Shown here piece after piece: positions 10 to 64,000 of a stretch of DNA of 64,000 nucleotides (positions within the stretch are counted from its first letter, which is position 1; each line of letters begins with the position of its first letter). Under the pieces are notes generated by a model. That model worked only from the letters and a program-made list of their open reading frames with translations, searched no databases and was not told the DNA's origin. A program made the translations under genes and the position numbers. This DNA comes from a virus. The stretch is from positions 3,392 to 67,391 of IMG/VR virus record IMGVR_UViG_3300015371_000026; one strand, written 5' to 3'.

Positions 10-255
10 GTGCGCGGGAAGGCGATCTCCATCTGGTGGCCCGACAAGCCGCGCCAGGATCTCTACGCGCTGCGCTTCGACGACCTCCTCGAGATCCCAC
101 CTGACATCAACGACAACATCGGGCTCGGTAAGGGCGACCCTGAGCCGATCGACGAGGACGACGCGGTGCGCTGTCTCGTCTGCGGCGGCGAGATCGGCGT
201 GAAGACGCGCAACTGTCGTCGGTGCGGGACGAAGGAGGGCGAGACACTTGCCTGA
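10..255 (+). CDS. Probably 5'-truncated small protein (SIWWP motif, C-terminal CxxC..CxxC)
   Basis: ORF at the window edge overlapping the next gene; resembles the K-SIW-x-P partners I recall upstream of GREB1-like phage genes. Confidence 0.5.
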   Translation: MRGKAISIWWPDKPRQDLYALRFDDLLEIPPDINDNIGLGKGDPEPIDEDDAVRCLVCGGEIGVKTRNCRRCGTKEGETLA

Positions 256-1192
256 TCGCGTGCTTCCGCGCTACCCGGTGTACGTGCCGTCGAAGGGTCG
301 CTACTCGGGCGCTCGACCGAAGACGGCGCTACGTCTGCTCAAGGACGGCGTCCCGTTTCGCGTCGTCGTCGAGGAAGCCGAGCGACGCGCGTACGAGCGC
401 ATGGTCGGCGCCAGTCGCGTGCTCGTGCTCCCGTTCAGCGATCTCGGGCAGGGGTCGATCCCGGCCCGTAACTGGATCATGGATCACGCCATCGCGGAGG
501 GGCACGAGCGCCACTGGCAGCTGGACGACAACATCATCGAGTTCCGTCGCCTGTATCGAGGCGACCGCTACCCGTGCTGCGCCGGTGTCGCGCTTCGCGC
601 CTGCGAGGACTTTACCGATCGTTACGAGAACATCGGGATCAGCGGGCTCAACTACCAGATGTTCGTGCCGCGCGACACGAGCGTCCCGTTCTATCTGAAC
701 GTCCACGTCTACAGCTGTACGCTGGTCAACAACGCGATCCCGCACCGCTGGCGCGGTCGCTACAACGAGGACACCGACCTGTGCTTGCAGGTGCTCGCCG
801 ACGGGTGGTGCACGGTGGCGCTCAACGTGTTCATGGCGAACAAGTCGCCGACCATGCGGATGAAGGGCGGGAACACCGACGAGCTATACGCGTCGGACGG
901 GCGGCTGGCGATGGCGCGCGCGCTCGAACGTCTCTGGGCTGGCACCGTGACTACAGATCGTCGCTGGCAGCGCCCGCAGCACGTGATCACGGACTCGTGG
1001 CGTAAGTTCGTCGCGTCGAAGGAGCCCGACCAGATCTCGCTCACCGACCTATACGAGGCGCTCGGGGAAGGACTCGAACTAAAGCTGAAGCCAGGTGTCG
1101 ATCTCTCCGCGCTTCCGGCGATCGACGAGTACGGGCTGCGTCTGCACAACACTCGACCGGCTCAGATGCCGATGGCGGAGGTGACGTCGTGA
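248..1192 (+). CDS. GREB1-like / TET-associated (TAGT) glycosyltransferase, putative DNA base modification
   Basis: Motifs YPVYVPSKGR, ARNWI, HWQLDDNI, VYSCTL, WRGRYNEDTDLCL, MKGGNTDELY. Confidence 0.75.
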   Translation: MPDRVLPRYPVYVPSKGRYSGARPKTALRLLKDGVPFRVVVEEAERRAYERMVGASRVLVLPFSDLGQGSIPARNWIMDHAIAEGHERHWQLDDNIIEFRRLYRGDRYPCCAGVALRACEDFTDRYENIGISGLNYQMFVPRDTSVPFYLNVHVYSCTLVNNAIPHRWRGRYNEDTDLCLQVLADGWCTVALNVFMANKSPTMRMKGGNTDELYASDGRLAMARALERLWAGTVTTDRRWQRPQHVITDSWRKFVASKEPDQISLTDLYEALGEGLELKLKPGVDLSALPAIDEYGLRLHNTRPAQMPMAEVTS

Positions 1193-7120: not shown

Positions 7121-7427
7121 GCCTAAGCGCAGCTGCTCATGCGGTCGAGTCGTCGAGCGCGGCACACGGTGCCCAGAACACGCCCGCGCGCCTCGCGACC
7201 GGACGTACGGGAACAGCCGCATCATCGTCAGGTCGAGCGCGCTCGTGTGCTGGATCTGCGGAAAGCCGTTCAGCGAGGACAACCCGCCGACCGCCGACCA
7301 CTTCGTGCCGCGTGACCTCGGAGGCAGCGACGACGTCGCGAACATGCGACCCGCTCATCTCAGCTGCAACATCAGCCGCGGTCGCGCGATGATCACTGGG
7401 AAGGGGGGGAGTGGCCTCCGCCCATAG
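7119..7427 (+). CDS. HNH endonuclease (packaging-associated)
   Basis: CWICG..TADHFVP..GGS..NMRPAHLSCN; position upstream of TerL. Confidence 0.85.
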   Translation: MPKRSCSCGRVVERGTRCPEHARAPRDRTYGNSRIIVRSSALVCWICGKPFSEDNPPTADHFVPRDLGGSDDVANMRPAHLSCNISRGRAMITGKGGSGLRP

Positions 7428-14159: not shown

Positions 14160-14354
14160 ATGACCAAGATCTACGTACCGAAGGAATCGTTCATCACTCC
14201 TATCGTCGATGACGACGGCAACTCGCGTGAGCACAACTTTCGCGAGGGACGTACGACAGTCGAGGAAGGGCATCCGGTGATGCGCGGGCGCGAGCAGCTG
14301 TTTCGCGAGATGACGATCGACTACCCTGCGCCGCGCAAGGTCGTGAACAAGTGA
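14160..14354 (+). CDS. Small post-capsid protein
   Basis: ATG with purine-rich RBS; coupled to the next gene. Confidence 0.6.
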   Translation: MTKIYVPKESFITPIVDDDGNSREHNFREGRTTVEEGHPVMRGREQLFREMTIDYPAPRKVVNK

Positions 14355-15598
14355 AGATCCTTCTCCACTCGAACGCCCCCTGGGCGCACACCGGCTACGG
14401 CCAGCAGACCGCGCAGCTCGCGACGCGTCTGCGCGACGCCGGTCACGAGGTCGCGCTCTCGACCTTCTACGGCCTCGAGGGCGCGGAGATGGAGTGGGGC
14501 GGGATGCGTGTCTTCCCCACCGACCATACGAAGTTCGGGAAGGCGATGCTCCCGTACTACGTCGGCGAGATCGCCGGTCGTGACACCGATCCGCGCGAGG
14601 TGCTCGTGCTGACGCTGATGGACGTCTGGGCGCTCACAGCGCAGTCCCTGTCGCGTCTGCGACTGGCCAGCTGGACGCCCGTCGACCACGAGCCGATGCC
14701 GCCGCGTCTGGGCGAATACTTCGCCTCCACTGGCGCGCGCCCGATCGCGATGAGTCGATTCGGGGAGACGCAGCTGAAGGAGGCCGGGTTCGACCCGCTC
14801 TACGCGCCGCACGCTGTCGACACGAACGTGATGCGCCCGCTGGGCGGACGCGACGAGCTACGGCGCGCGCTGAAGGTGCCGGAAGACGCGTTCGTGGTCG
14901 GGATGGTCGCCAACAACAAGGGCACCGGCCCGCCGCGCAAGGCGTTCCCGCAGGTCATGCAGGCGTTCTCGATCTTTCACCGCGACCATCCCGACTCTGT
15001 GCTCTATCTCCACTCAGAGGTGTTCGGGCTCGACGCCGGTGTCAACCTGCTGGCGCTCGCGCGCATCTGCGGGATCCCTGATACGGCGCTGGCCACGACC
15101 GATCAGCTGCGTATGCATCTCGGCATTCCCGGCGAGGCGATGGCAGCTGTGTACAACGTCTTCGATGTGCTCGCGAACCCGAGCTACGGGGAGGGATTCG
15201 GAATCCCGATCATCGAGGCGCAGGCGTGTGGCGTCCCGGTGATCGTCAACGACTGCACGTCGATGCCCGAGCTGCTCGGCGCAGGATGGCTCGTCGACGG
15301 CGACGACTTCTACGACCCGCCTCACGGCGCCTGGTACAAGTGCCCGTCTGTCGCGGAGATCTACCAGGCTATTGAGCAGGCGTACGAGACGCGCGGCGAC
15401 CAGCAGCTGCGCGAGCAGGCGCGCGAGTTCGCGCTCGCGTACGACGCGGATTGCGTCTTCGCCGAGTACTGGACACCGGTGCTTGACCAGCTGGAGCTGC
15501 CGCGCGAGATCGGGCCGCTCGTGATCGCAGAGCAGAACGGGCTGAATCGCGAACAGCGGCGCGCAGCCGCGAAGCAGCGGCAGAAGCAGAAGGTGTGA
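14351..15598 (+). CDS. GT-B (family 4) glycosyltransferase
   Basis: SNAPW..TGYGQQT, RKAF, NPSYGEGFGIPIIEAQACGVPVI. Confidence 0.9.
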   Translation: MKILLHSNAPWAHTGYGQQTAQLATRLRDAGHEVALSTFYGLEGAEMEWGGMRVFPTDHTKFGKAMLPYYVGEIAGRDTDPREVLVLTLMDVWALTAQSLSRLRLASWTPVDHEPMPPRLGEYFASTGARPIAMSRFGETQLKEAGFDPLYAPHAVDTNVMRPLGGRDELRRALKVPEDAFVVGMVANNKGTGPPRKAFPQVMQAFSIFHRDHPDSVLYLHSEVFGLDAGVNLLALARICGIPDTALATTDQLRMHLGIPGEAMAAVYNVFDVLANPSYGEGFGIPIIEAQACGVPVIVNDCTSMPELLGAGWLVDGDDFYDPPHGAWYKCPSVAEIYQAIEQAYETRGDQQLREQAREFALAYDADCVFAEYWTPVLDQLELPREIGPLVIAEQNGLNREQRRAAAKQRQKQKV

Positions 15599-26373: not shown

Positions 26374-28179
26374 GTGCCTCCGCCGAAGGTCGCGCAGAAG
26401 GCCGGTAGCGGCGTCATGGCGTTCTCCGCTGGAGGGAGCGGCGGCGTCCCGAAGGTCGCGGTCAAGACCGGCTTCGGTCGCATGGGCGCGCCGATCACCG
26501 GCGGCCCTGTTACGAAAACCGGCGCTGGCGTACAGGAGCACGCAGGCTCGGGCGCTGACGCGGCGCTCTGGGTCGACTCCGGCGCTGGCGTACAGGTACG
26601 CGCAGGTAGCGCAGCGGACGCAGCCACCTTCGTGGAGAGCGGCTCAGCGACGAGCCCGCGCTCGGGCGTCGCTGCCGACGAGATCCTGTGGGTCGACAGC
26701 GGCGCTGGCGTATCTCCTCGCGTCGCTTCTGGTGCGAGCCAGAGGATCCTCGGCGGGAAGAGCGGCGCTGGTGTCAGCGAGCGCGTAGCAGCGGGCGTCG
26801 ACGCAGAGCTGTTCGTTGAAGCGGGCGCGGGCTCCTCTGATCGCGTAGCGAGCGGCGTCGATGCGGCGACATTTGTCGAGAGCGGGAGCGGTGTCTCTGC
26901 GCGATCGGGTGGCGGCGTCGCTTCTCGCGCAGGGGCGATCAGCAAGTCGGGCGCTGGCGTCACAGCGCTGTCGGGCTCCGCGGCCGACGCAGCGACGTTC
27001 GTCGAGAGCGGCGCTGGCGTTTTGGTCAGGATCAGTTCTGGCGCAGACGAGTCAGACTTCATCGAGAGCGGCTCCGCTATCAGTCCGCGTAGCGCTTCTG
27101 GGGCGCGCGTCAGCGGCGGTGGCGCGGTCTACACCAAGACCGGCTTCGGCCGGATGGGTGCTCGACTCCCGATCTCGACGACCGGCGCTGGCGTCCTCGT
27201 ACGCGCGGCATCGGGTACGTCGCAGAAGATCAGCGGCGGTCTCTCCGGATCTGGAACCGGTGTCTCAGTACGCACCGGCTCGTCTGCTCGCGCAGTCATC
27301 TTCTCCCGTTCTAGCTGGCCGGGGAGCGATACACCTGAGCCCCCGTTCCTCGAAGGCGACCACCCGCCGAACATCGTCTTCGCCGCGTCCGGCGTGTCGC
27401 AGAAGGTCGGTGCCGCGAACCAGAAGGCTGGAGCGGGCGTCAGCGATCGGATCGGCTCGGGCGCAGACGCGGTCGTCTATGCCAAGAGCGGCGCGGGCGT
27501 TAGCGCACGTGTAGCTAGTGGTCAAGATGCAGCCGCCTGGGCAAAGACAGGCTCGGGTGTTCTGTCAGAGACAGGCGGCGCTACAGCCACCAAGGCCGGG
27601 CAGAACGCGAAGGCGGGAACAGGAACTAGCCCGCGAGTTGCCGCTGGCGTAGACGCAGAGACGTTCGTCGAGTCGGGGCAGGGGCAGCTACTCAGAATCG
27701 GATCGGCCGCAGACGCGGTTACGTTCAGCGAGAGCGGGTCAGGTGTTAGCCCGCGCGTCGCGAGCGGAACGTCGACGAAGGGCGCGACGATCGTCAAGAG
27801 CGGCTCAGCGACGGCAATCTTCACTGGCGGCGCGACGCGACTACGCGAGCGCTACCGGGCAAACACAGCGCTCAGCACATTCACCGGAGGCGCATCGGAC
27901 GCGGCGACGTTCTTCCGGACCGGGCGCGGCGAGATCGACCGCAAGGCGAGCGGTGCTGACGCGACGCTCTATCAGAAGCGCGGCACCGCGCTCGCGACAT
28001 TCGCTGGCGCGGGCGTCTCTCAGCCGGTCACGTTCCTCGCTGGGAGACCTCCACACACGCCCCGTACTCGCATGATCATCCGCGCGAACGGGTCGACGCG
28101 CGTCCGTAGCACCGGGCGCACATTCGTCACTCTCGGTAGCAGCGGCGGCAGCTCCCCGTACGACGAGGGGAGCGGCTAG
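26374..28179 (+). CDS. Fibre-like protein with about 20-aa Gly/Ala/Ser repeats
   Basis: Many copies of FVESGAGVSxRVASGADAAT; true start uncertain. Confidence 0.7.
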   Translation: MPPPKVAQKAGSGVMAFSAGGSGGVPKVAVKTGFGRMGAPITGGPVTKTGAGVQEHAGSGADAALWVDSGAGVQVRAGSAADAATFVESGSATSPRSGVAADEILWVDSGAGVSPRVASGASQRILGGKSGAGVSERVAAGVDAELFVEAGAGSSDRVASGVDAATFVESGSGVSARSGGGVASRAGAISKSGAGVTALSGSAADAATFVESGAGVLVRISSGADESDFIESGSAISPRSASGARVSGGGAVYTKTGFGRMGARLPISTTGAGVLVRAASGTSQKISGGLSGSGTGVSVRTGSSARAVIFSRSSWPGSDTPEPPFLEGDHPPNIVFAASGVSQKVGAANQKAGAGVSDRIGSGADAVVYAKSGAGVSARVASGQDAAAWAKTGSGVLSETGGATATKAGQNAKAGTGTSPRVAAGVDAETFVESGQGQLLRIGSAADAVTFSESGSGVSPRVASGTSTKGATIVKSGSATAIFTGGATRLRERYRANTALSTFTGGASDAATFFRTGRGEIDRKASGADATLYQKRGTALATFAGAGVSQPVTFLAGRPPHTPRTRMIIRANGSTRVRSTGRTFVTLGSSGGSSPYDEGSG

Positions 28180-28857
28180 ATGCCTGGGCAGGTGATCCGC
28201 AGTTTCACCGTGATCGTCGGCGGCGTCGATATCTCCGATCACGTGAACGCGCTCGCTGTCGAGGCAAGCAGAGACACGTTCGACATGACGCCGCAGGGAT
28301 CGCCCGGAAGATTCCAAGACGTCGGCGTGCCAGACGGAGTGATCGCCGTAGCGTTCTTGCAAGACTGGTATCTCGACTCGCTGCTCTACCCGGTGCTGTC
28401 GAGCCCGACCGCTCCGACAGTGAGCGCGTCGCTACCAGGCAGCTCGACCTGGACGATCGAGGGAGCGACCGTCGTCGGCTACAGACCGCTCGACGGGGAT
28501 ATCGGCGCGGCGGGTCGGACGCAGGTCAACTTTCTCGGCGCGCTCACGCTCGGCGGCGGCGAGCACGCAGAAACCGGCGCTGGCGTCTCTCCGCATATCG
28601 CCTCCGGATCGCGCGTCGGCGGGTCGATCGCGTTCATCAAGACCGGCGCTGGCGTTGTAGTGCGAGCAGCGGGCGGCGTGCGCGCAGCGGTCTATGTCGA
28701 GAACGGCGCGGGCGTGCTCGTCCGCTCGGCGTCTGGCGCTCGCGCTGGTACCGCGATTCTCAAAGCAGGGACTGGACTACAGGTGCGCGCAGCGTCAGGA
28801 GCAGACGCGGGGATCTTCGCTGAGACGGGGATCGGCGCGATGGGAGCTACGCATTGA
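28180..28857 (+). CDS. Tail-tube paralogue fused to fibre repeats
   Basis: N-terminus aligns by eye to 30262-30681; C-terminus carries ETGAGV repeats. Confidence 0.6.
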   Translation: MPGQVIRSFTVIVGGVDISDHVNALAVEASRDTFDMTPQGSPGRFQDVGVPDGVIAVAFLQDWYLDSLLYPVLSSPTAPTVSASLPGSSTWTIEGATVVGYRPLDGDIGAAGRTQVNFLGALTLGGGEHAETGAGVSPHIASGSRVGGSIAFIKTGAGVVVRAAGGVRAAVYVENGAGVLVRSASGARAGTAILKAGTGLQVRAASGADAGIFAETGIGAMGATH

Positions 28858-31597: not shown

Positions 31598-34500
31598 ATG
31601 GCCGTAAAGACCATCTTCGTCAACATTCTCGCGAACGCCAACCAGTTTAAACGTGAGCTGCGCGGCGCCGTCATCGCGACGAACGAGGCGAACATCGGTC
31701 TCAAGCGGTACGGCAAGGCAGCTGGTGTCGCCGGGGTCGCGCTCGGCGCCGGTCTGGTCGTCGGTCTGGAGAAGTCCGCGAAGGCCGCGATGGTTGCGCA
31801 GGAGCAGACCGCTCGACTCGACCAGGCGTTTCGTCGCTCGCATGTCGCGATGTCTGACTTTACGGGCCAGATCGACAAGGCCGAGAAGTCGTCGCGCAAC
31901 CTGGGCTTCACGAACGCTGCTGTACGCAACTCGCTCGGCTCGCTTGTGATCGCGACTCACAGCGGCAGGAAGGCGATCGCTGATCTGTCGGTGGCAGAAG
32001 ATCTCGCGCGCTTCAAGCACGTCGATCTCGCGACTGCGACGAAGTCTCTGACGATGGCGATGGCCGGGTCGCAGCGCGCGCTCAAGCAGCTCGGCATCAA
32101 CGTCCCGAAGGTGACGACCGCGCAGGACGCGGCACGCAAGGCGTACGACGCGGCGCGCGAGGCGATCAAACGCCACTACGACGGGATGGGCAAGCTGACG
32201 GAGGCGCAGAAGGAGCAGCGCCAGAAGGCGCTCGATCTGGCCAAGTCGAAGTACGACGGCGCGAAGGCTGACGCGAAGGTCACCGACTCGCAGTCGACCG
32301 CAGCGAAGGTGATCGCGAAGGTGCGCGACCTGATGCACGGACAGGCGGAGGCATACTCGAAGACAGCGGGCGGCGCGATGGAGAAGTACCGCGCGCAGAT
32401 GGACAACCTGAAAGAGGTGATGGGCAAGGCGGTGCTACCGGCTATATCGGCGATCGCTGGTGCTCTCGCGAAGTTCTTGGGTGTGCTCTCTGATCACCCG
32501 ACGCTGCTGAAGGCGCTCGCGCTCGGACTCGGGATCATGGCGGTCGCGATGATGGCGGCGGGCGCTGCGTCGTTCTTCGCGTCGTCTGCGTTGTTCACGA
32601 CAACGATCGCCGTCGGCGCGCTTGAAGTCTCGCTGCTCCCGCTCGTCGCAGCGTTCGCTGTCGTCGCAGCTGCCGTCTACCTCGGGATCAAGTACTGGCC
32701 GCAGATCAAGGACGCGATGGAAGCTGTGTGGCAGTGGATCAAGAGCACGTTCGTCCCGATCTGGGAGACGCTGCGCGACGCGGCGGTTACAGCGTGGGAG
32801 AAGATCAAGAACGCGCTCGTCACTACGTGGGAGGCGATCAAGACAGCTGCGACGGTCGCGTGGGAGGCGATCAAGACGGTGATCACCACTGTCTGGAACT
32901 CGATCGTCTGGGTCTTCGAGCACCTGACGATCGCCGGTCTGATCCTGTCCCACTGGAACCAGATCAAGACGTTCACTGTCGACGTCTTCAACGCCATCGT
33001 CGGGTTCTTCAGTGCGCTACCCGGTCGTATCGCCGACGCGTTCGTCACCGCGTGGGAGGCGGTGAAGGGGAGACTGAGCGGCGCGTTCGACTGGCTGAAG
33101 ACGCACGCCGGTCAGGTCATTAGCGGTGTCGTCGGCACGTTCACGTCTCTGCCTGGAAAGATCGGCGACGCGATCGGCGGTGCCATGCACTTTCTGAAGG
33201 AAAAGATCGAGTCACTGTTCGCCTGGAAGACGGTCGTCGGCTGGGTCGAGCACGCACTCGGCTTCTCTGAGCACTCCGAGTTCTTCGGTGACATCGGTAT
33301 GAAGATCGTGCGAAGCATCGCGCGTGGTGTCGGTGAGGCGAAGGACCTACTCGTGAACGCGATCGAGAAGATCGCTGGGAGTCTCAACCCGTTCAGCGGA
33401 GGGTTGCAGGGCGGCGGCGTGAGCGGGAAGGGCGGCACCGGTGTTCCTACGGGCGGCGGCTCTACTCTTCCGCTGCTGCTGTCGTGGGCAAAGCAGGAGG
33501 GCATCGCTGTTACCTCGACGACGTCGGGTAACCACGTGAAGGGCAGCTTCCACTATCAGGGACGGGCGATCGACGTATCTGGATCAGCGCCGATGATGGC
33601 GAAGTTCTTCCTCGACACGATCAAGCGGTTCGGCGTCGGCAGGATCAAAGAGTTGTTCTACGACCCAATGGGCTACTTCGTCGACAACGGTCGAGCTGTG
33701 AGGGGCGCCATCGGCGGGCACTCTGACCACGTCCATCTCGCGCTCGCCGCTGGTGGGATCGCGAACAAAGCGACGATGGCGCTGATCGGCGAGGCTGGCC
33801 CTGAGGCGGTTGTCCCGCTGCGACGCTGGGAGCAGGGCTGGCAGGAGGTCAAGCAGTCGCAGGACGACGGCTGGCGACAGCTGAGCAAGTCATACGCAGA
33901 CGGCGAGGCCGAGGCGCGCGAGCGCGACGTGCGTAACGCAGCGCAGTCTGAGACGCAGACGCGGGTCACGCAAGAGCAGCTAGCAGACATGATCGCGAAC
34001 ATTCAGGCGCTCCCGCCGGGGTTCAACGAGGCGCTCGGGATCTTCGGCATGACCCAGCAGGTGAACGACGAGACGAATACGACGAGCGTCACCGACTCTG
34101 TCGACACCGCGTCTGTCGAGTCGTCGAGTTGGCTCTCGAAGATCTTCGACGCTGTACAGCCGCTGAACGACTCGCTCAAGAACATCGCCGATATTCTGTC
34201 GAATAGAGGCGGCGGCGGCGGCGGCAGCGGCGGCGGCGGCAGCGGCAGAGGCGGCGGCGGCGGCGGCGACGGCGGCGGCAGCGGCGGAGCCGGACAGTTC
34301 ACTCAGATCTACCCAGAGGACGCCGGGTTCGTTCAGGTCGGCGGCGGCGTCGGCGACACCGGCTTGTTCGGCGGCGGCGGTGCTAAGACGTCGGGCGTCT
34401 CCTCTGCGCTCGCCGCGCTCGGTACGCTCTCGCCTCCGCACGGGATGCACCGCGACGGCCCGTTCTGGTATTCGGTCGAAGGGTCGAAGGGAATGCCCGC

Positions 34501-48530: not shown

Positions 48531-49058
48531 TCACCTCACTCCTTCCGCCAGCAGCGGGTCGACCGCCGTGGCCGTGTACATCGGACGATACGTCCCGACC
48601 GGCGCGGCGACGCCGATCGGCCCGACCACCATCTCGTACTGGGCCTGTGCCTGCGCTGCGCTCATGCTCCAGTACGTTCGCAGCGACCAGCGCAGCATGA
48701 CGACCGACCCGAGGTCGGCGTTCTGCTCGTCGTGCTCGTTGAACGCCACGTGCCAGAACTCGTGGTACAAGACGCGCGCTGCCGTCGCCCAGGACAACTG
48801 CATGCGCGGGTCGATGTCACCTGGCTTCCCGTGAAGCAGAAGATCAGCCGCCCATCCCGCGAGCGTGATTCCCTGCTTCCGGTCGCCTGCGTACGCGCAG
48901 CTGTTGTCGTAGCTCCACGTGTACACGGGCATGTCCAGCGGCAGTTTCGCTTCGAGCGCGGGCGACTCGACGCGCCCGTACTCATCTGCGTGTGCAGCCT
49001 GTACGCCGCCAGCGAGTGCGAGCGCGACGACGCAGCCGATGACGAGTAGCTTCGTCAT
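48531..49058 (-). CDS. Secreted HExxH protein
   Basis: Signal peptide ending AAHA; VLYHEFWH..E..AD. Confidence 0.55.
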   Translation of the reverse strand: MTKLLVIGCVVALALAGGVQAAHADEYGRVESPALEAKLPLDMPVYTWSYDNSCAYAGDRKQGITLAGWAADLLLHGKPGDIDPRMQLSWATAARVLYHEFWHVAFNEHDEQNADLGSVVMLRWSLRTYWSMSAAQAQAQYEMVVGPIGVAAPVGTYRPMYTATAVDPLLAEGVR

Positions 49059-49078
49059 CTCTCTCACCTCTTCCCTTC

Positions 49079-49143
49079 GGACTCATCGGTGCGGCCAAGT
49101 AGCCGCAGACGCGCGAACGTCTCAGCGCTCGCGCGTTTCGTCC
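49079..49143 (-). ncRNA. Hammerhead ribozyme, type II (CCGAUGA core variant)
   Basis: GGAC GAA ACGCGCGAGCG cugaga CGUUCGCGCGU C UGCGGC uacuug GCCGCA CCGAUGA GUCC; intergenic. Confidence 0.8.
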
Positions 49144-49958
49144 TTAGTAGTCCTCGTCCCAGCGCTCGCCCGCGTAGAGCGGGTCGAAGTCGCTCGGCTG
49201 GAGAACCGGATACCGCTCGTTGATCCGCTCTTGCTCGTCCAGGCGCTCGTCCCAGTGCTTGTCGCATCGCGGGAACTGGCGACCGGTCGGCGACAGCGCC
49301 ATCCTGTACTCGACGGCGCCCTCGCAGCCCTCCGGACCGTCCAGGCATCTCAGCTGCTCATCCATCTCAGCTCACCTCCTCCGCTTCGTCCTCGTCGATC
49401 TCTCCCATGTCGAGCAGCATCGCTGCCGCCTCGTGGACGTCGTCGGCGAGACCGCCCTCGACGAGCGCGTCCGCCTTCTCCTGCGGGGTCATGTCGTCCC
49501 CGTACGCCATCGCTCTCACCTCTCCTCGGGCGGGACGTACTCGTCGTCGAAGCCGTCGCGGAACCCGACAGACGCCATGCAGTCCTCGCACCACTCGGTC
49601 GGAACCGGCGCGTGTCTACGCGCCAGCGCCAGCGACTCATGGGAGCAGACCGCGCCGTGCTCGACGCAGATCGTCTCCCACCTGTTCCACGCGATTCCCT
49701 GTTCACGCGCCTCGGCCCGCTCGAAGTCGTCGACTCCGCGGTCGACGATCTGGACGAGTGTGCCAGTCTCGCGGGCGCGTCTCTCTTGAACTAGCCGCTC
49801 CATCGCTCTCACCTCTCTCGTTGTAAGCGTCTCCCTCGTGGCCGAAGCTACCCCCGACGAACTTATTCAGGGGGCCTCTAGGGCCCGAGCGAGCCAGCTG
49901 CTGGCAGCCGTTTTCGGCCTGCTAGGCCAGGTGCACCGACTACCCCGCGCAGCCTGGC

Positions 49959-50798
49959 TCAGTCGGCGTCGAACGTCTCGACGTAGATCGGCGAGATGCC
50001 GAAGAACCGCTCTGTCTCCTCGCGTGCCCGCTCGCTACCGCCAGGAATCCCTCTGCTGTAGCGATCGCGCTTCATGAACAGCCTGTAGCCCGTCCCGAAC
50101 CCGCTCGGTGTGAACGAGTACGCGCTCCCGCTCGCCAGCGTTCGCGTCACCTCCTGCTTGCGCTCCGGCGTCACCTCGAACGGGATACCCGGTACTCGCT
50201 CCGACTGCGCGAGACGCGCGCGCGCCTCGGGGATGCGCACCTCGAGGATCTGCTTGATCGTGTGATTCGCCTGCTCGATCACGTCAGCCTTCGCGATCTT
50301 GCTCGCAGAGAGCTGACGCTTCGTGTAGACGACCTTCGTCCCCGCACCGTCGGCGGAGTCCCAGACGATCGTCGTCTCGTCGGAGTACGAGTCCTTGCGG
50401 TTCTCGCCGAACTCGCGATACCCTGGCCCCTGCGTAACTGTGCCGAGCATCTTCGACTTCCCGTGGACGACGCGATCGCCTGCGCGCGGCGCGTCGATCC
50501 ACTTGCGCGGGTTGTCGATGTAGAACGAGTCCTCGACGCCGTAGCGGTCGAACGTGCGCCGACCGAGCGGAGTGTCGAAGCTGACGTGCCCAGACGCGAG
50601 CGAGTAGCTGTCGCGACTGTTCGGGTAGAAGTTGATGAGGATCTCGACGTCGGGCGAAGTGAGCGCCAGCACCTTGAACGCTGGCATCCAGTTCGTCTTC
50701 GGCTCGACTCGTACCTCACGCTCGAACCCTTCCGGTGTCTCGATCTCGCGCAGCATGCGCGCGACCGTCGGTACTGACTGCGTCTTCTGTGCTGCCAT
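49959..50798 (-). CDS. Hypothetical protein
   Basis: ATG 50798 with array RBS; C-terminal FTPSGFGTGY. Confidence 0.6.
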   Translation of the reverse strand: MAAQKTQSVPTVARMLREIETPEGFEREVRVEPKTNWMPAFKVLALTSPDVEILINFYPNSRDSYSLASGHVSFDTPLGRRTFDRYGVEDSFYIDNPRKWIDAPRAGDRVVHGKSKMLGTVTQGPGYREFGENRKDSYSDETTIVWDSADGAGTKVVYTKRQLSASKIAKADVIEQANHTIKQILEVRIPEARARLAQSERVPGIPFEVTPERKQEVTRTLASGSAYSFTPSGFGTGYRLFMKRDRYSRGIPGGSERAREETERFFGISPIYVETFDAD

Positions 50799-51595
50799 CG
50801 TGCTCACCTCCAGCTTTCTGCGTACTCGCGCGGGTAGCACCACTTCGCCGCCGCCCACGCGTAGTCGCTGATGACTTCGGCCTCAAGATGAGACCACTTC
50901 GGGTCTGCAAGCAGCTCGTCGAGCATCGCGTCTTTCGCAGCTTCGAGATCACCCGCCCGACGACCGATGTCGAGTAGACGCTCGCGATCGCCACGGTCAA
51001 GCTTCACGTATGTCGGCAACTTCGCCATCGCTCACCTCACTCTGTCGTGGTAGTAGACGTTCCAGCCGTCCCAGCGCACGCGGCCGTCCGTCGCCTTCTC
51101 GACTCGCCGCAGCACCTTGCGCGCAGCGTCCATCTCGCTGTACTCCGGCTCGTCGGCGTTCGCGCCCAGGCACCACATCGCGTACTCGGCCAGCACGCAC
51201 GCAGCCTCGTCCGAGGGCAGCTCCAGCCGTAGGCTGTAGCCGCGCCCTCTCGTGATCCGGCGAGCCGCCAGCCAGGCGACGCGCAACTCCCGCGCGCCGC
51301 GCTCGATCTCGGGCTCGTCAGTGTACTGCTGTCCGGCCATGACGCCGGTGCCGCTGAAGTACGTCTCGAACGCTCCTGGCACGTCGATCTGCATCTCACT
51401 CACCCCTCTCCTCGTCTTCGACTTCGAGTCGAACGACCAGACACTCGCCGCGCTGGCCGTGCTCGCTCGCCTCGCGATGCAGCGTGCGCACCGCCGTCTT
51501 CATGCCCTGCTCGTCTTCCGCAGTGGCGCGATCGCCGCTGACCGAATGAACGATCACGTACATCGTGCTCACCTCCCTGTTGCTCGTCTTCCAGA

Positions 51596-51642
51596 TGACC
51601 CCCGATCGGAGTCGAACCGATCGTTGTCGAACCGTCGGGGTC
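51596..51642 (-). ncRNA. tRNA-like minihelix (acceptor-like stem + T arm)
   Basis: GACCCC..CGAUCGG UUCGACU CCGAUCG GGGGUC A; intergenic. Confidence 0.45.
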
Positions 51643-54160
51643 GCTGCGAGCGACTAGCGCTCGCTTTCCTCAAGCTGCTGGATCTCCGCGTGCGTCTCGC
51701 GCAGCTCAGCTGCCTTGCGCTCGAACTCGTCTGCGATCGTCAGCAGGTTGTCCCCGTTGATCTCCCAGCCGAGATCTTCGCGCCAGTTGCCGCGACGCAG
51801 TACGACGATCGCCTGGCCCATGACTGTCTCGCTCAGCGTCATCGCGATCACTGCTCCTTTACGACGACGTGGAACTGTCGCCCGTCGCGCAGATGAACGA
51901 CGAACCCGCTATCGCGAGTCATCCACGTTCCGCCCGCGTAGTTCTCGGTCGTCGCCTCTTCCAGCTCGTCGACGTCGATCGAGCTGTCGACGTCCTCGGG
52001 ATGCCCGATCGCCTTGTCGACGACCTCCTGCAGAAACATCGCGAACTCGACCTCGGTGAGCGTCTGCTCGTCCTCGTCGGGCTCGTCTTCGCGTGAGTAG
52101 AAGTCGTACATCGCTCTCACCTCTCCGGAATGTTGTACTGGACGTTGAACTCGTACGTCGCGCGCGCCTCTGTTAGCTCGACGCGTGACGCGATCCACAC
52201 CATCTGATCGGTGCGCGTGTTGATCTCGACGAAGTACCGATACCCGGCGGCGACGACCGTCGTGATCTCGCCAGCGTCGGGCTGATCTTTCCAGTCCCAG
52301 ACGATCGGGACGATGTCGATTCGCTCGTTCATCTCAGCTCACCTCGCCTGGGTAACCGTCGGCGACGCAGCTCGGGCAGACGGGTCCGTACTCGTCGACG
52401 CTCCACTGGCCGCACTTGCAAAGGCCAGCCTGCTCGTTCAAGCCGACGGCGATCTTCGACGCCAGCTCGACCATCTTGGCGTAGCGCGCGGCCGCGACCG
52501 GCGAGACGCTTCCGTGCGCCTGCCAGTTCACCTCTGCGCCCTTCAGCTCTCCGCCGAAGCGCTCCTCTGGCTTCCAGATCTCGACCTTCGCCAGCGGTGT
52601 CGCGGGCTGCTCGTTCGGCCACAGCTCCAGCGAGTAGTGGCTTCCGTCCTCGATCTTGTACAGCGTCGTGTTCTCGTCCTTACTGATGACGATTAGCTCC
52701 TTCATCGTTCCTCACCTCCCTGCGCGCTCGCGCGCGCGTCGACTTTTGTTGTGCGTCTCTCGCACCGGGCCGCTCCGGTCAGAGCCGGAGTCGACCGCTA
52801 CGGCCGCAGTCATCGCAGACTTCCGCGCCGTAGCTCGACCAGCTCGAACTGGTCGAGATCGTCTCTACTGGCGTAGTGGAGCGCGAGCGTGTCGCGACCG
52901 CGCTGGATCGCCTCGACGTACGTTTGCGCGATCACGTCTGTTGTACGTCCGAACCCCATGCGCTCGTGGCGCCAGGCCAGCTTCCATTCGTAGGCTCGGT
53001 CTCTCATCGTTCTCACCTCTCCTCTGCGATGTCGACGAAGTCGACGCCGCTTCCGTAGGGATAGCCGTTGACGACGCTCGCGTGAACAAGCTCGTCGCCG
53101 CGCGTGTACAGCGTGACGCGGAGCCCGTTCGTCGCGAGCGCTCGCGCGTTCTCTGCCACGACCGCGTTCGCGCGCTTCGAGTACAGGATCGCGTAGGCGT
53201 GACCGAACCCGTGAAGACCGTCGCCGTGGGTACGAACGCCGAAGTCCTTGTAGCAGCCTGCTCGACGATCGCTGCGCCAACGAAGTCCGAGCGCGCTCAG
53301 CTCGTCGCGGATCTTCTGTGCCTGGAGCGTGATCATCGCTCTCACCTCTCGTCGTAGTAGTGGTCGACCATCTCGACGTGCACGGGCGTCTCCACTCGCG
53401 GGAACGCCTCCGCCCAGGAGACGACTCGCCCGTCCGGCATCCGGACGGCGTTGATCGCGACGTCGTACGCCGCGTCGATGTGCTGCTTCTTCTTCATCGT
53501 TCTCACCTCGCCTCGCGCGTACGCGCGTCTACGAACAGGCGCTCTCGATCTCGAAGCGCTCGTCCTCGGTCATCGTCTTCCACACTTTCCGGATGCGCGC
53601 CTCGATCCCCGTGCGGAACTGCAGCGGGCGCGTTCGAGCCTCGAATACCAGCTTCCAGTATGTCTCGACGTTCGTCATCGTGCTCACCTCTCCTCGATCT
53701 CGTAGGACGCTGCCTTGCGACTGTCGCCACCAGCGACGTCGCGGCGCGCGTTCAGATTGCGTCGACGCAAAAGATCCTGCGCCATCAGCTCGACGTTCTC
53801 GCGCGAACTCGCGATACGAAGACGCGCGCTGCCGATCTGCTCTCCGTCCTTCGTCAGAAGTTTGATCAGGTACTTCATCGTCGCTCACCTCTCAGTCTCT
53901 CTCGTCGATCTGCTCGCCCTTGCACCGGAACTTCCAGCAGCAAAGACCCGTCAGTACGATGTACAGCTCGATAGCGATCAGAACGATCATCGCTCTCACC
54001 TCTCCTCGCGGTCGAGCAGAACGTGCAGGCTCGACCAGTTGTGCATGAAGTCGTGCGCCCAGCTTGAAACGTCCAGCAGCATAAGCGCGACGTGCGCGCC
54101 GTGGATGACGAACTCGAACATGTGTCTCGCTCCGTTCCGCAGGCGACGTTTGCGCCCGCT

Positions 54161-56115: not shown

Positions 56116-56344
56116 GCGACGAGCTGCGCTACTCGGCGACGGTGACGTTCCGCGCGGACGGGGAGGAGTGCACGACGGTCGGGTGGGGAAGGACTCGTAC
56201 CGACGCGATCGACCACGCGCGCGCGCAGGCGAATCGTCGCGAGCAGCGAGACTGGATCCCGATTCTCGTCTCGACGATCGACAGCATCTACGCCGACCTG
56301 ATGGGACGACCGCAGCTCCCGCAGCAGCGCGGAGAACGAACGAC

Positions 56345-57496
56345 GTGAGCCCGATCATCGACATCCAGCGGCGCATGGCCGAACTCGGGCGCATCAGGCT
56401 CGGGACGAAGGGCCCGAAGGGCGAGCCGAAGAAACTGGACACGTTCCGTCTAACCAGCGCCGGGAAGGAGCTGCTGGAGAGCGCCGCAGCGATCTACGGC
56501 GGCGAGGTGCGCCCGTGGACGACCGCGCCGGACGAGGGCCAGTGGGAGCTGATCACCGAGACGAACTCGATGCGCATTCTGATGCCGCCAACGTTCAACG
56601 AGATCGACGGGTCGCCGAGCCACGCGTGGTCGCAGTGGTACGAGCTGTGGTCGCGCGGCGGATGCCAGCGTCGCTGCGACGGGCAGACCGAGTACCTCTC
56701 CGGAGGCCCGTGCATGTGCACGCCTGAGCCCGACGAGCGCGACTGCGAAGTCGTGACCCAGTTCAACATGATCCTGCCCGACGTGGCCGGTCTCGGCGTC
56801 TGGCGTCTGCGCACCGGCGGCTACTACGCGGCGACCGAGACGATCGGGACGCTGGCGCTGCTCGAACGCGCGGCTCAGGAGCACGAGTTCATCCCGGCGG
56901 TGCTGCGGATGGAGCAGCGCTCGGTGAAGCGCCCGAACGAGCCGCCCCGCCGCTTCGTCGTCCCGGTGATCGACCTACCAGATACACGCGTCGCAGATCT
57001 TCTCCCAGCGTCGGTGCGCGCACTGACCCCGGCGCGCTCGACGGACGAGAGACCGGCCCTCCCTGCCAGCTCGCCACCTCTCCCCGCTGGCGAGGGGGCC
57101 GGTTTCGAGAACGACTCGGCGTCGCGCTTCGACTGGGAACCAGCTGACCTACCTGAGCCTGGGCCCGACGCGGGCGGAGAGGGAGTGGCAAACGCCGTCG
57201 AGACACCTGCGGTAAACGTCTCGTTAGAGCACGCGGATCTGGTTGCTGCAGACGAGCCGGTTCTGCACTCGCCGCCCTCTCCGCCGACGTCGACGCCTGT
57301 CGCTACCGAGATTCTGGACGAGCTGATCAACGAGCGTAAGCAGCAGATCTCTGAGGTGCTTGACCAGCTCGGTCAGACGGACTCGATGTCGACGGTCGAG
57401 AAGGTCGGGGAGCAGTACGAGCCGAGCGCGTATCTCGACTGGCTCGATCGCCAGCTCGAACGCGCGCGCGCCAAGCTGGTCGAGGCGAGCGCGTGA
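56345..57496 (+). CDS. Gp3-like recombination / single-strand annealing family protein
   Basis: ELGRIRLG, FRLTS, GCQRRCDG, GLGVWRL.T.GYYAA.E; next to the exonuclease. Confidence 0.7.
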   Translation: MSPIIDIQRRMAELGRIRLGTKGPKGEPKKLDTFRLTSAGKELLESAAAIYGGEVRPWTTAPDEGQWELITETNSMRILMPPTFNEIDGSPSHAWSQWYELWSRGGCQRRCDGQTEYLSGGPCMCTPEPDERDCEVVTQFNMILPDVAGLGVWRLRTGGYYAATETIGTLALLERAAQEHEFIPAVLRMEQRSVKRPNEPPRRFVVPVIDLPDTRVADLLPASVRALTPARSTDERPALPASSPPLPAGEGAGFENDSASRFDWEPADLPEPGPDAGGEGVANAVETPAVNVSLEHADLVAADEPVLHSPPSPPTSTPVATEILDELINERKQQISEVLDQLGQTDSMSTVEKVGEQYEPSAYLDWLDRQLERARAKLVEASA

Positions 57497-60786: not shown

Positions 60787-61434
60787 GTGAAAGCAGCGCT
60801 CGTACTCCCCGGCGGGAACATCTGGCCGCCGCAGCAGAAGGCGCATGACCTCGGCGCCGACCGGATCGGCTGGACGAGCAAGGACCCGCAGATCGACCCG
60901 GCGACGAACGGCGGCGTTAACGTCATGGAAGCGGTGCGCGCGAACGGGTTCACGCTGTTCTTGATGCGTGCGCTCTGGAACTGGGGCGGCTCGCCCGAAG
61001 CGTGGGCTGACGACTTCCGAGCTGACCTGAAGCGGCTCGACATGCTCTCGACGATGACGCTACCGGGCAACATTCCGAAGCACAGCGCGCGCCAGTGCGC
61101 GATCAACGCCGACCTCGAAGTCGACGACTCAGAGTGGGTCTTTCGCGCGCTCGCGCAGCTACTCTCGGTGCTACCCGGACGCGGCATCACCTGGTCGATG
61201 CAGCCGCACAAGGGCGGGATCATCAGCGACACGCTGCGCGACCTGATCAACAAGAGCCAGTGGATCACCGTCGCGCCGTACACGTACCGGAACAACATGC
61301 AGCGCTGTAGCGAGCGCTGGGTCGTCGACGACCTGATCGCGCGCGGGATCAAGCCTGAGAAGATCCTCTGCTACTACCGCGACGTCTGCGAGGGCTGGAA
61401 CGGGTTGCTGTGGGATCTGGTGCAGATCACGTGA
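60787..61434 (+). CDS. Hypothetical protein
   Basis: 215-aa ORF with AAGGAG RBS. Confidence 0.55.
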   Translation: MKAALVLPGGNIWPPQQKAHDLGADRIGWTSKDPQIDPATNGGVNVMEAVRANGFTLFLMRALWNWGGSPEAWADDFRADLKRLDMLSTMTLPGNIPKHSARQCAINADLEVDDSEWVFRALAQLLSVLPGRGITWSMQPHKGGIISDTLRDLINKSQWITVAPYTYRNNMQRCSERWVVDDLIARGIKPEKILCYYRDVCEGWNGLLWDLVQIT

Positions 61435-61459
61435 GCAAGCGACCGTCCTGGTTCGGCGT

Positions 61460-62164
61460 GTGAGCGAAGCCGTCCGTATCCCCGACGTCGCTGGCGAGAT
61501 CCTCGGCTGGAAAGCGCTTAGGTACTTTGGCGGCACTGGTGGCGTGCTGCAGTCACCGATGCAGACGATGACCTGGAGCAAGACGTCGTGGACGAACGCG
61601 CGATGCAACGGGGGCCACCACTTCACCGCGGCGCTCGCGACGGCGATCGGAGGGGCGTTGCCACCGCACGAGATTCCAGAAAAGGAGTGCTCGTGCGGCA
61701 TCTACGCAGTCGCAGACGCGCTCGACGCGATGACGTACTTTCGCGGTAGCAACTACGTGCTCGCGCGCGCCGCTCTCTCAGGCAAAGTCATTCCGGGCGC
61801 GAAAGGCTGGCGCGCAGAACGCGCGCGTATCCACTCGATCGCACGCGTCGGGGAATCGTTCGTGCTCGACATGCTCGCACGCGAGTACGGCGTCGAGGTC
61901 GTCGAGCCGCCCTTTCGACCCGACGAAGGTCGCCGTCTATCTCTCCCAGCGACAATCAGACTTAGCGGCCGCGACGGCCAAGTTTACGGCGAGCATCACG
62001 CAACTGCAGAAGTCGATCGCCTCCGCGGTCGAGCCGTTCTCGACTCTCCTGCTCGCTTTGACGCAGGAGGCTACGAGATCACGATCAAAGAGTGGGACAT
62101 CGGATCGCTCACCCTCGCGGAAGGGGACAAGCTCATCTTCACATTCACAGTGAACCATCTCTGA
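61460..62164 (+). CDS. Conserved protein with CxCGIYA motif
   Basis: ILGWK, ECSCGIYA, G.VI.G..GWRAERA. Confidence 0.6.
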   Translation: MSEAVRIPDVAGEILGWKALRYFGGTGGVLQSPMQTMTWSKTSWTNARCNGGHHFTAALATAIGGALPPHEIPEKECSCGIYAVADALDAMTYFRGSNYVLARAALSGKVIPGAKGWRAERARIHSIARVGESFVLDMLAREYGVEVVEPPFRPDEGRRLSLPATIRLSGRDGQVYGEHHATAEVDRLRGRAVLDSPARFDAGGYEITIKEWDIGSLTLAEGDKLIFTFTVNHL

Positions 62165-62292
62165 TGGACATCGGCACAGAAGAACCAGCGATCATCGTCG
62201 AGCCGGTCGAGGACCCGTTCGAGCGCGAAGCGCCGAGCGAGCCCGAACCCGTACGGACGCCCGAGCGCGAGCCAGAGAAGGTACCCGCGTGA
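62164..62292 (+). CDS. Pro/Glu-rich peptide (42 aa)
   Basis: MDIGTEEPAIIVEPVEDP...EKVPA; TGATG and GTGA overlaps. Confidence 0.6.
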   Translation: MDIGTEEPAIIVEPVEDPFEREAPSEPEPVRTPEREPEKVPA

Positions 62293-62787
62293 TCGTCGCC
62301 GCTGTCGAGCGAGAGCACATCGAGGGACTGGTCGACCTGGCCGAGATGACCTCTCCCGGCGATCTAGGAGTGACCTTGATAGCGCGCAAGGTCGGGTGGA
62401 AGATCGACGTCTCGCTCCTCGTCGCTGACGTCGACGAGCGCTACGCACCGCCGCTACCTCGAAGCGCAGTGAATCTCATCGACCCTTATCGACTGTTCGG
62501 GTTCCCGGTCGTCTCGCGCGAGTGCATTACAGTCGAGCGTGCTGAGCGATGAGCGAGATGCCCGACCCGCAGCCCAGCCTCCCGTTCGGGACGACAGACG
62601 ACGACATCAACTCGCTCTGGGCGATGGACTGCCCGGCCTGCCAGGGACGCGGCTGGATGCACGCAGTCGAAGCGTACGAGTTCCGCGGCACGTACAAGGG
62701 GCGCGACAAGACCGGCGTCGTGCGCAGCGACGAGCGCGAACCATGCCCGAACTGCGGCGGCAGCGGCGGAGTGGAGATCCCGTTCTG

Positions 62788-63165
62788 ATGAAGCAAGTCC
62801 CAGGCACATGGGAGCACGGCGAACCGCCCGCACCGCAGCAGATACCGCGATCGGAAGCTGGTCCCGTGCTGCGCGGTCTCGAAGCAGAGGGCGCGCTGTA
62901 CGTGCGTCTCTATCGGATGGGCGAGTGCGCGATCGTCGTCTCGCGCGAACCGTGCGGACCAGGAGGTTCGTACGCGTGGCATCTCTCGATCTCTCACCTC
63001 GATCGACATCCGAGCTGGGACGAGATCAAAGCTGCACGCTACTGGCTGCTGCCTGACGCGCTGATGTTCGCGATGCTGCTACCGCCGAGCGAGGAGTATT
63101 TCAACCTGCCCGCGCAGGATCACGTCTTTCACATGTACGAGATCCCAGACCCGGAGATGTCGTGA
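62788..63165 (+). CDS. Conserved phage protein
   Basis: WHLSISH..RHPSWDEIK..LPP.EEY.N..FH. Confidence 0.7.
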   Translation: MKQVPGTWEHGEPPAPQQIPRSEAGPVLRGLEAEGALYVRLYRMGECAIVVSREPCGPGGSYAWHLSISHLDRHPSWDEIKAARYWLLPDALMFAMLLPPSEEYFNLPAQDHVFHMYEIPDPEMS

Positions 63166-63888
63166 CTGATCTCAACCCGGAACAGCGCCCCACCTTTGTA
63201 ACAGAATGGAGGACAGCATGAGCAGCCACTACCACGAGCCGAGTTGTCGATGCGATCAGTGTGCGCCCCGCGCTGGCTCTGTCGGGGTCGCACCGAGAGA
63301 CGCGGACTTTCCTCCGGGCTTCAAATGGAATGAGGAGGAAGGGAGGCCTGTCTTTGCCCCACCGCCCATGAGTCCCGAGGACATTGAGAAGCAGTTGCGG
63401 GTACTCGCGCCGACGTTGGATCGGGCGGAGGAGTTGCTGTGGCAGGCTGGGCATCCGCGTATCGCCGAGCAGCTTCACTCCGAGATTCGTCAACTCTTTC
63501 TCCAGGCAAGGATTTTGTGGCCCGAGGCTACGGGTGACTGATCTCAACCCGGAACAGGGCACCACGACCCCGGCTTTCGACGGCTGCGAGCTTCCGCCTG
63601 ATCTCTGGAACGAGGAAGGCTCGCGCGTCTGGATCCGCTACGACCTCTGCGAGAACGCGGCTAAGGCCCGTTACAAGGCGTGGAAGGGGATCGGCCTGCC
63701 GATTGGCTTCGCACCTCCTGACGGCGACTCCGATCTGATCGACCTACGGGTGCGCGTCGTCTGGGCGAGGTTCGCCCCGGACGATCCCGTGTGGGACGAG
63801 TGGCCGTGGAAGATGTGCGGCCGTGACGACCACGGCGCGGTGAAGTTCTGGGAGGTTGCGGCCGATGCGTGATCTCAACCCGGAACAG
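63162..63888 (+). repeat. Direct repeats at gene junctions
   Basis: GTGACTGATCTCAACCCGGAACAG at 63162-63185 and 63534-63557; last 19 nt again at 63870-63888. Confidence 0.9.
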
Positions 63889-64000
63889 GTGCGGGGAATC
63901 ATCGAAGCCACGTGGCGATTGAACACGTCCGCCATTCACTCGCCGGTCAGCATGGACGAGGTGCGCGCGTTGGCTCAGTCTTGGCTGGCTCAGGGGGAAG

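Follow-up and report, generated by a model that had tools for sequence, protein, structure and literature searches.

Phage genomes are mosaic and rich in small orphan genes, and the clean entry or exit of a single gene is known in few cases, such as the PeSLs of T4-type phages. In Arbiol et al. 2010 (PMC2839356), PeSLs are described as intergenic motifs of ~100 bp that combine a promoter with a terminator stem-loop and occur in many copies, and deletion, circularisation and re-insertion of the orphan open reading frames (ORFans) that they flank are reported as shown, with mini-circles and with insertions or deletions between close relatives. Here we analyse a locus at the end of a 64,000-nt stretch of virus DNA (hereafter the window; bases 3392-67391 of IMG/VR record IMGVR_UViG_3300015371_000026), where two short coding units, insert 1 and insert 2, lie between three direct copies of a 19-24-nt repeat (R) in the order geneA-R-insert1-R-insert2-R-gene3. 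We read it as a minor hot spot where a soil phage has gained genes in its early region, probably through recombination that was illegitimate or used short homology, with a portable stop/start joint as its site, and give this reading a probability of roughly 0.55.

The nearest known case is PeSL-mediated modular shuffling in the hyperplastic regions of T4-type phages. In both systems small ORFans lie in a plastic early region, each between copies of one conserved motif, and in both the motif carries signals for expression and is, in the present case probably, the place where recombination adds or removes single genes. The repeat of the window differs in being 19-24 nt long and coding (a stop/start with eight codons) and in having three copies, and no promoter or hairpin was detected with it. 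The locus is probably a case of repeat-mediated modular phage shuffling in which a coding stop/start joint is the repeat.

Other systems resemble the locus in single respects. Unrelated proteins at one polymorphic locus of T4 share only a short conserved N-terminal leader, the capsid-targeting sequence (1994 work, cited in PMC3012670). Here two full-length proteins (those of insert 2 and gene 3) carry the leader, whereas the third copy heads just 19 codons; furthermore, the homologues of the cargo lack the leader, and the genes around the locus are early ones for recombination and replication. The start-associated sequence (SAS) of Cluster K mycobacteriophages (PMC3203893) is a 13-bp element upstream of the start codon with 11-19 copies genome-wide. 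Like the repeat, it is a short asymmetric repeat at the translation starts of unrelated genes; in contrast, the repeat spans the start and seven codons, includes the upstream stop and has its three copies within 730 nt. Integrative elements can also accrete in tandem at the end of a gene, where attL and attR direct repeats restore the target; such elements measure kilobases and need an integrase. The likeness lies in an insertion that duplicates the end of the target gene and leaves the gene intact, giving the order repeat-element-repeat-element-repeat, and the difference in the size of the units (331-372 nt) and in the lack of any detected recombinase in unit or phage.

The repeat and its stop/start joints

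Copy 1 (63162-63185) and copy 2 (63534-63557) are identical over 24 nt (GTGACTGATCTCAACCCGGAACAG), and copy 3 (63865-63888) consists of ATGCG followed by the 19-mer TGATCTCAACCCGGAACAG, all on the plus strand. The 19-mer itself has exact copies at window 63167, 63539 and 63870. With start-to-start spacings of 372 and 331 nt, an exact match search agrees with an earlier examination of the letters by a model without database searches (the sequence-only reading), which had described a 24-bp repeat twice identical and shared over 19 bp a third time, followed by unrelated sequence. Beyond the edges the sequences are indeed unrelated in 6/6 flank comparisons (shuffle p 0.16-0.82). Allowing up to three mismatches, TGATCTCAACCCGGAACAG matches the window three times against 0.01 expected, and 0/100 shuffles reach three. 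No further copy was found elsewhere in the genome on either strand at up to five mismatches, including the 3.4 kb that remain outside the window. The repeat is the longest direct repeat at 120-1500 nt spacing genome-wide, Markov-shuffled genomes having none of 16 nt or more, and its guanine plus cytosine (GC) content is 50% compared with 65% for the genome. An apparent similarity of copies 1 and 2 past the 24 nt (30/32 nt) gained no support in the flank alignment test (p 0.16), and a general RTGACTGA junction motif was rejected, being carried by two of the repeat copies only.

The arrangement is not a misassembly, because contigs of independent runs read across every copy. The read evidence consists of Logan contigs at 3-6x depth from four other sequencing runs: copy 1 is bridged by contig X1 record 7 (63127-63348), copy 2 by X1 record 8, X8 record 31 and X3 record 24, and copy 3 by X1 record 8 and X2 record 16, with 0-1 differences from the window. 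In run X8 the stretch 63673-63869 lacks cover and is not interpretable. The sequence-only reading had named read evidence of misassembly as something that would undo it, and the bridging of all three copies speaks the other way. An artefact of chimeric joins at a shared k-mer might be thought of for a metagenome assembly in which contig ends cluster at the repeat; we hold it to be scarcely credible, given the bridging contigs, a repeat shorter than the k-mers used, and reading frames and stop/start overlaps that are intact at all joints.

Gene A (62788..63165, plus strand; 125 aa, DUF7694, PF24746 with E 8e-10) ends at the first TGA inside copy 1, that is, the first TGA of GTGACTGA; its relatives L007 and L008 in IMG/VR (45-48% identity) have no repeat after gene A. 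In copy 1, frame 1 provides a GTG start codon and each of the remaining frames a TGA stop. The copy opens a leader open reading frame (ORF) of 19 codons (63162..63221, plus strand; MTDLNPEQRPTFVTEWRTA and a stop), whose stop overlaps the insert-1 ATG as ATGA, and the leader is probably translated and coupled to the insert-1 gene. That gene (P0002; 63218..63541, plus strand; 107 aa) has its ATG in another frame than the leader and its own GGAGGA Shine-Dalgarno sequence upstream, and it receives its last two codons and its stop from copy 2. The same copy opens the insert-2 gene (P0003; 63534..63872, plus strand; 112 aa), whose product consists of the repeat-encoded head VTDLNPEQ, about 12 unique residues and a conserved body from PxDLWNEEG, and whose stop is the TGA of GCGTGATC in copy 3. 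Both inserts end at the TGA of (C/G)TGATC. Copy 3 in turn starts gene 3, of which the window holds the 5' part (63865..64000, plus strand); the gene has 176 codons for amino acids in all, and the rest lies at C1:124-518, across the record ends.

The ORFs opened by the three copies begin with M/V-TDLNPEQ twice and MRDLNPEQ once, and GGAG, GAGG or GGAGG stands 5-9 nt before every copy, provided by the 3' end of the preceding gene. The sequence-only reading was right that each copy contains the upstream TGA, since the stops of gene A, insert 1 and insert 2 all fall there. Its claim that each copy opens the next ORF holds for insert 2 and gene 3 and has to be modified for copy 1, whose ORF is merely the 19-codon leader.

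The array was also expected to continue past the window. The record of 67,391 bp carries a 123-nt repeat at both ends, so that the phage genome, of 67,268 bp, is circular or circularly permuted; the locus lies at the very end of the record, and the record start (L005) comes next. With the genome closed into a circle and the remaining 3.4 kb free of copies, the array does not continue. In a further rival, the genome would physically end, or carry a packaging signal, at the repeat and at a second conserved block downstream in gene 3, and the 123-nt terminal repeat would then be real. The terminal overlap (window 63878-64000) starts at the 9th base of the 19-mer of copy 3 and ends inside the second block, and two contigs of other phages behave alike, L004 starting at the repeat and L016 ending in the second block. 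We nevertheless regard genome ends as very improbable. An HNH endonuclease motif (window 7248-7379; C1:10639-10770) lies directly upstream of the large terminase gene (window 7777), which we take to be the arrangement of cos-packaging phages, and this pair, near which packaging would be expected, is ~11 kb away. Moreover, gene 3 would be cut in virion DNA, and contigs of other runs read straight through, although contigs cannot show the ends of molecules.

Foreign inserts and the head of gene 3

Insert 2 has four homologues (P0005-P0008, 63-71% identity), none of which carries the LNPEQ head: they start VSS.., VTDQ.., MSEAP.. and MTAVEE.. and align with insert 2 from PxDLWNEEG onward only. The two homologues of insert 1 (P0009 and P0010; 77-79% identity, 78 aa) start at insert-1 residue 28 and lack the head as well. 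In composition insert 1 stands apart, with a CpG observed/expected ratio of 0.98 compared with 1.40±0.11 for 79 reference genes of the phage (z -3.7) and 3.1 TCGA per kb compared with 12.9±5.3. Insert 2 lies nearer to the genome (CpG ratio 1.24, TCGA 6.0 per kb). The depletion of CG and TCGA between the copies that had been noted at first reading is therefore clear for insert 1 and weak for insert 2. The reference genes had been pre-selected at a GC content of third codon positions (GC3) of at least 0.72, and because of this filter a rank by GC3 is biased and was left unused. Judged by these comparisons, homologues without the head and the deviant composition of insert 1 show both inserts to be foreign, and they acquired the head secondarily.

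The structure model of insert 1 (predicted local distance difference test, pLDDT, 72.6) consists of a beta-hairpin and a helical hairpin with residues 1-25 disordered; in that of insert 2, residues 1-18 are disordered. Disorder of head and linker in both models is in keeping with a head that was gained later. Neither the inserts nor gene 3 belong to a Pfam or PHROG family, a fold search with the structure models gave no match with E <= 0.001, an Atlas search on the function of inserts and gene 3 gave nothing above chance level, and Rfam gave nothing credible at the locus. Inserts 1 and 2 had no protein match in IMG/VR and no tblastn match among isolated phages.

The repeat itself is, on sequence comparison, the native 5' end (the first 19-24 nt) of gene 3, a mosaic helical early protein. 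The same head opens ORFs elsewhere: VADLNPEQVR in L016 (64% GC), MTDLNPEQVR in L011 and L004 (a phage of 44-46% GC) and VTDLNPEQVR in P0013. The second conserved block, GGGAAGCACTAGCAGCC, starts at 63995, ~100 nt downstream, and encodes (S)WLAQ(G/R)EALAAAQ; L004 and L016 match it exactly over 23-25 nt. The sequences that share the two blocks diverge between them and again past the second one. The family as compared here comprises P0011-P0016, L004 and L016. P0013 has a different middle and is missing the central domain, and P0012 and P0014-P0016 have the central domain HRxAAAILVGT in common and other N-termini. On these alignments gene 3 is itself a mosaic, with the head as one of its modules. 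The upstream neighbours of the head differ in all three phages where they are visible, and when L016, L011 and L004 were compared with the genome by tblastx, no match beyond the head exceeded ~39 bits. Collectively these comparisons show that the head module is mobile between unrelated phages. P0011, a strain variant of gene 3 that is one residue off (D to E at RERDSW), lies on a separate 3.4-kb contig, so close variants of the phage exist in databases.

The low-GC phage offers a second view of such a joint. L011 and L004 come from different assemblies with a 69-nt identical overlap, and together (L011:2607-2682 with L004:7500-7758, minus strand) they hold a short gene 3 that forms a 250-nt island, with 61-63% GC inside and 32-47% GC in the flanks. 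Two direct copies of ATACTAATGACTGA (14 nt) enclose the island and hold both of the TGACTGA sites that occur in L011/L004. The left copy combines the stop of the upstream gene with the ATG of the island gene, and the right copy the last codons and stop of the island gene with the ATG of the next gene. Thus the head module has moved into an unrelated low-GC genome at a stop/start overlap and the joint has been duplicated, which is the same outcome as in the window.

A search for the repeat in the genome and in metagenomes had been proposed in the sequence-only reading; the genome holds no more copies, and contigs of other phages carry the same head. The exact 19-mer has 18 loci in metagenome contigs, namely six N-termini of UvrD-type helicases, three gene-3 heads (L010, which equals L004, L011 and L016), one insertion sequence (IS) element and eight unrelated singletons. 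Another 22 loci come from species genomes, comprising seven UvrD-type genes, nine IS copies in four Streptomyces genomes and six singletons, with no prophage array among them. In IMG/VR the exact 19-mer occurs in L004 only, and with a degenerate DLNPEQV pattern (33 loci) 0/32 new ones are the start of a gene-3-like ORF. A search with the second block GGGAAGCACTAGCAGCC returned L004 and the phage's own record only. Gene 3 has one weak C-terminal match in IMG/VR (L006), its core has none there, and tblastn found no match among isolated phages. No close relative bearing the whole locus was found in the IMG/VR, metagenome contig or isolated-phage searches.

Routes of gene gain at the joint

The first description called the locus an integron-like array of captured cassettes. 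Architecturally the likeness is real: a one-directional array of promoterless, single-gene foreign units on the plus strand (372 and 331 nt) with a repeated site between them. What defines an integron, namely IntI, attI, the attC palindrome and the Pc promoter, was not detected here, and the repeat, which does not vary between copies, is part of coding sequence. A nearby recombinase had been proposed as a check. Neither tyrosine recombinases (PF00589; control positive in 14/14 genomes) nor serine recombinases (PF00239) gave a match in six frames of the whole 67,391-bp record. Six 84-nt DNA folds (three copies, both strands) showed no attC-like hairpin, with z from +0.5 to +1.7 and 132-197/200 shuffles folding at least as well, and the unit ends have no inverted repeats. 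A promoter scan limited to sigma-70-like sites found none in 61000-64000, and the only two terminator-like sites lie on the minus strand at ~61260-61320. With no tyrosine or serine recombinase, attC-like hairpin or promoter, and with an array that stops at three copies, the locus is not an integron and resembles one in architecture only. What survives of that claim is the pair of foreign single-gene inserts at a fixed joint.

On the accretion reading, two foreign single-gene segments would have been added in turn upstream of gene 3, whose start would be duplicated each time: a foreign segment would join behind the gene-3 start, and a second joint would rebuild the full start downstream. The repeat could then act as an adaptor whose TGA in two frames ends the upstream gene and whose GTG or ATG in the third frame starts the next, so that a promoterless newcomer may be stopped and the next gene restarted without new signals. 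Survivors would be those forms in which every gene retains a stop and a start, signals that the repeat provides across all three frames. Insert 2 would be expressed as a fusion to the head, and insert 1 by way of the 19-codon leader coupled through ATGA. The joints could be made, and later reshuffled, by general recombination on short homology, with at least one illegitimate joint per insert. With two copies in place, units could be lost, form circles and return through recombination between the copies. The course of events, the mode of recombination and the expression are all presented here as probable rather than observed.

Such a process would require no dedicated site-specific recombinase, and the phage encodes proteins that could serve it: an exonuclease (phrog_298, 9e-31), an adjoining Gp3-like domain protein of 442 aa (window 56168-57496; PF18897, 'recombination directionality factor-like', E 1.8e-38) and RusA (3e-21). 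The Gp3-like protein next to the exonuclease occurs in a phage without a detected integrase. Contig ends also cluster at the head module, namely the record start, the start of L004 (4 nt before the repeat), the end of L016 (in the second block), the end of L011 and the end of X8 record 32 at 63870; this clustering in five assemblies fits alternative neighbours in the populations.

Several points weigh against accretion by general recombination. Inserts 1 and 2 have their left joints at an identical position (after CAG, ±1), which is unexpected from two independent illegitimate events and suggests a more site-specific process or a module edge defined by homology. The duplications of 24, 20 and, in the low-GC phage, 14 nt are clean, as expected of a staggered site-specific cut. 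A homology of 19-24 nt is short for efficient general recombination, and no annealing protein of the RecT, Erf or Rad52 type was identified in the phage. Selection acting on the sequence might also account for the perfect agreement of the three copies. Because L016 and L004 were retrieved with an exact 19-mer, their identity in the head is in part a search artefact, and the second block alone is independent. Finally, the contigs of the four runs contain no alternative joints, left-out letters or repeat variants, although rare forms would be invisible at their depth.

Selection on the sequence is at the heart of one rival, in which the repeat is functional in itself, whether as a translation start with little structure, a tag at the N-terminus comparable to the T4 capsid-targeting sequence or a regulator site, and has reached the starts of nearby genes through gene conversion. 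The Shine-Dalgarno-like letters 5-9 nt before all copies, the 84-nt contexts that fold worse than their shuffles (z +0.5 to +1.7), the repeat's 50% GC within a 65% GC genome and another conserved start-associated motif of the phage, with eight copies on leftward genes, agree with such a role. Copy 1, however, heads a 19-codon ORF without cargo, the homologues of insert 2 manage without the head, the three copies are clustered rather than forming a genome-wide set, and gene conversion leaves the foreignness of the inserts unexplained. We therefore consider this rival unlikely; roles as start region, tag or SAS are not the whole story, yet they are compatible with that of an adaptor. The other start-associated motif precedes at least eight leftward early genes (window 49049-54008, minus strand) as the reverse complement of CATCGCTCTCACCTCTCC. 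On the coding strand it reads GGAGAGGTGAGAGCGATG (families D2 and D3), an extended Shine-Dalgarno sequence with start codon, and it is closer to the Cluster K SAS than the repeat is.

The shared left joint and the clean duplications suit a different rival, dedicated site-specific capture, integron-like but without IntI. An enzyme would recognise the 19-24-nt site, cut at its edges and insert promoterless ORFs with a long target-site duplication; candidates would be an unrecognised protein of the phage, or an IS5-family transposase of the host, whose terminal inverted repeat would be mimicked by the site. In favour are the single nucleotide position at which both inserts join, the identical and sharply bounded repeats and, in the low-GC phage, an insert with a clean 14-nt duplication of the target junction. 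The link to a transposase comes from the IS element among the 19-mer matches, an IS4/5-family element of ~1.1 kb with DUF4096 and DDE_Tnp_1 domains and 27-nt perfect terminal inverted repeats, whose inner 20 nt are TGATCTCAACCCGGAACAGG; these 20 nt are the right terminal inverted repeat together with the TGA stop of the transposase. Its ends lie at L013:50-77 and 1125-1152, flanked by CTAG, and it recurs at nine loci of four Streptomyces genomes (L029, L034-L036, L039, L042, L046, L047 and L049) with flanks CTAG or CTAA. In addition, the isolated-phage matches of the Gp3-like protein are mostly Streptomyces phages (6/8 records).

Against capture, no tyrosine or serine recombinase, DDE_Tnp_1 or DUF4096 domain was detected in the phage, and the copies are all direct with no inverted partner at up to five mismatches, although a DDE transposase would require its ends in inverted orientation. 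The site falls short of the IS end by the outermost 2-3 nt, there are only three copies in one genome, and the lengths of the duplications vary (24, 20 and 14 nt). The match to the IS end may be a chance 19-mer hit, as the two big scans also gave six and eight unexplained singletons; chance is possible, yet the match is of note for a transposase-binding end in a plausible host genus. A test for an IS5-family element itself, a miniature inverted-repeat transposable element (MITE) or a mobile insertion cassette (MIC) was negative, the copies being direct with no inverted copy nearby and no transposase domain in the phage. On balance we regard dedicated capture as improbable. The more specific proposal, that the site is the recognition site of a capture machine without an integron integrase, which either makes a long-stagger cut or is a hijacked host IS5-family transposase and duplicates the adaptor, is in our view slightly more doubtful still.

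Phage context and biological meaning

The phage was recovered from rhizosphere and soil metagenome runs and has a genome GC of 62-70%. A portal gene is annotated besides the genes named above. Its large terminase had no tblastn match among isolated phages, and the isolated-phage matches of the Gp3-like protein are only 35-39% identical. Because the terminase is without a match and the Gp3-like matches come mostly from Streptomyces phages, the phage represents an uncultured lineage and is possibly an actinophage.

Other parts of the genome show features of their own. A homologue of beta-glucosyl-HMC-alpha-glucosyltransferase (phrog_842, 1.6e-34) and a second glycosyltransferase (phrog_2170) are encoded at window 248-1192 and 14351-15598, and a ParB-like nuclease or methyltransferase-type domain lies at L005:2654-3646; the two glycosyltransferases together with this domain hint at DNA hypermodification. 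Protein-level repeats with the motif ..GCGCTGGCGT.. (families D4, D5 and D10) occur in a large ORF at window 26460-28670, and a GGC-rich tract at window 34205-34377 encodes a glycine run in a 1088-aa ORF.

As a solution to the addition of single genes, the coding joint is economical: it stops the prior gene in two frames, starts the next and is duplicated with each addition. If it is a relic of two chance events, the locus would be a well-documented example of mosaic joints fixed by selection. The capture machine, if real, would carry small genes between phages whose GC contents lie as far apart as 46% and 66%. If the joint is an active recombination site, it would be a tractable model for how distant soil phages exchange single genes, and engineering would gain a natural plug-in site.

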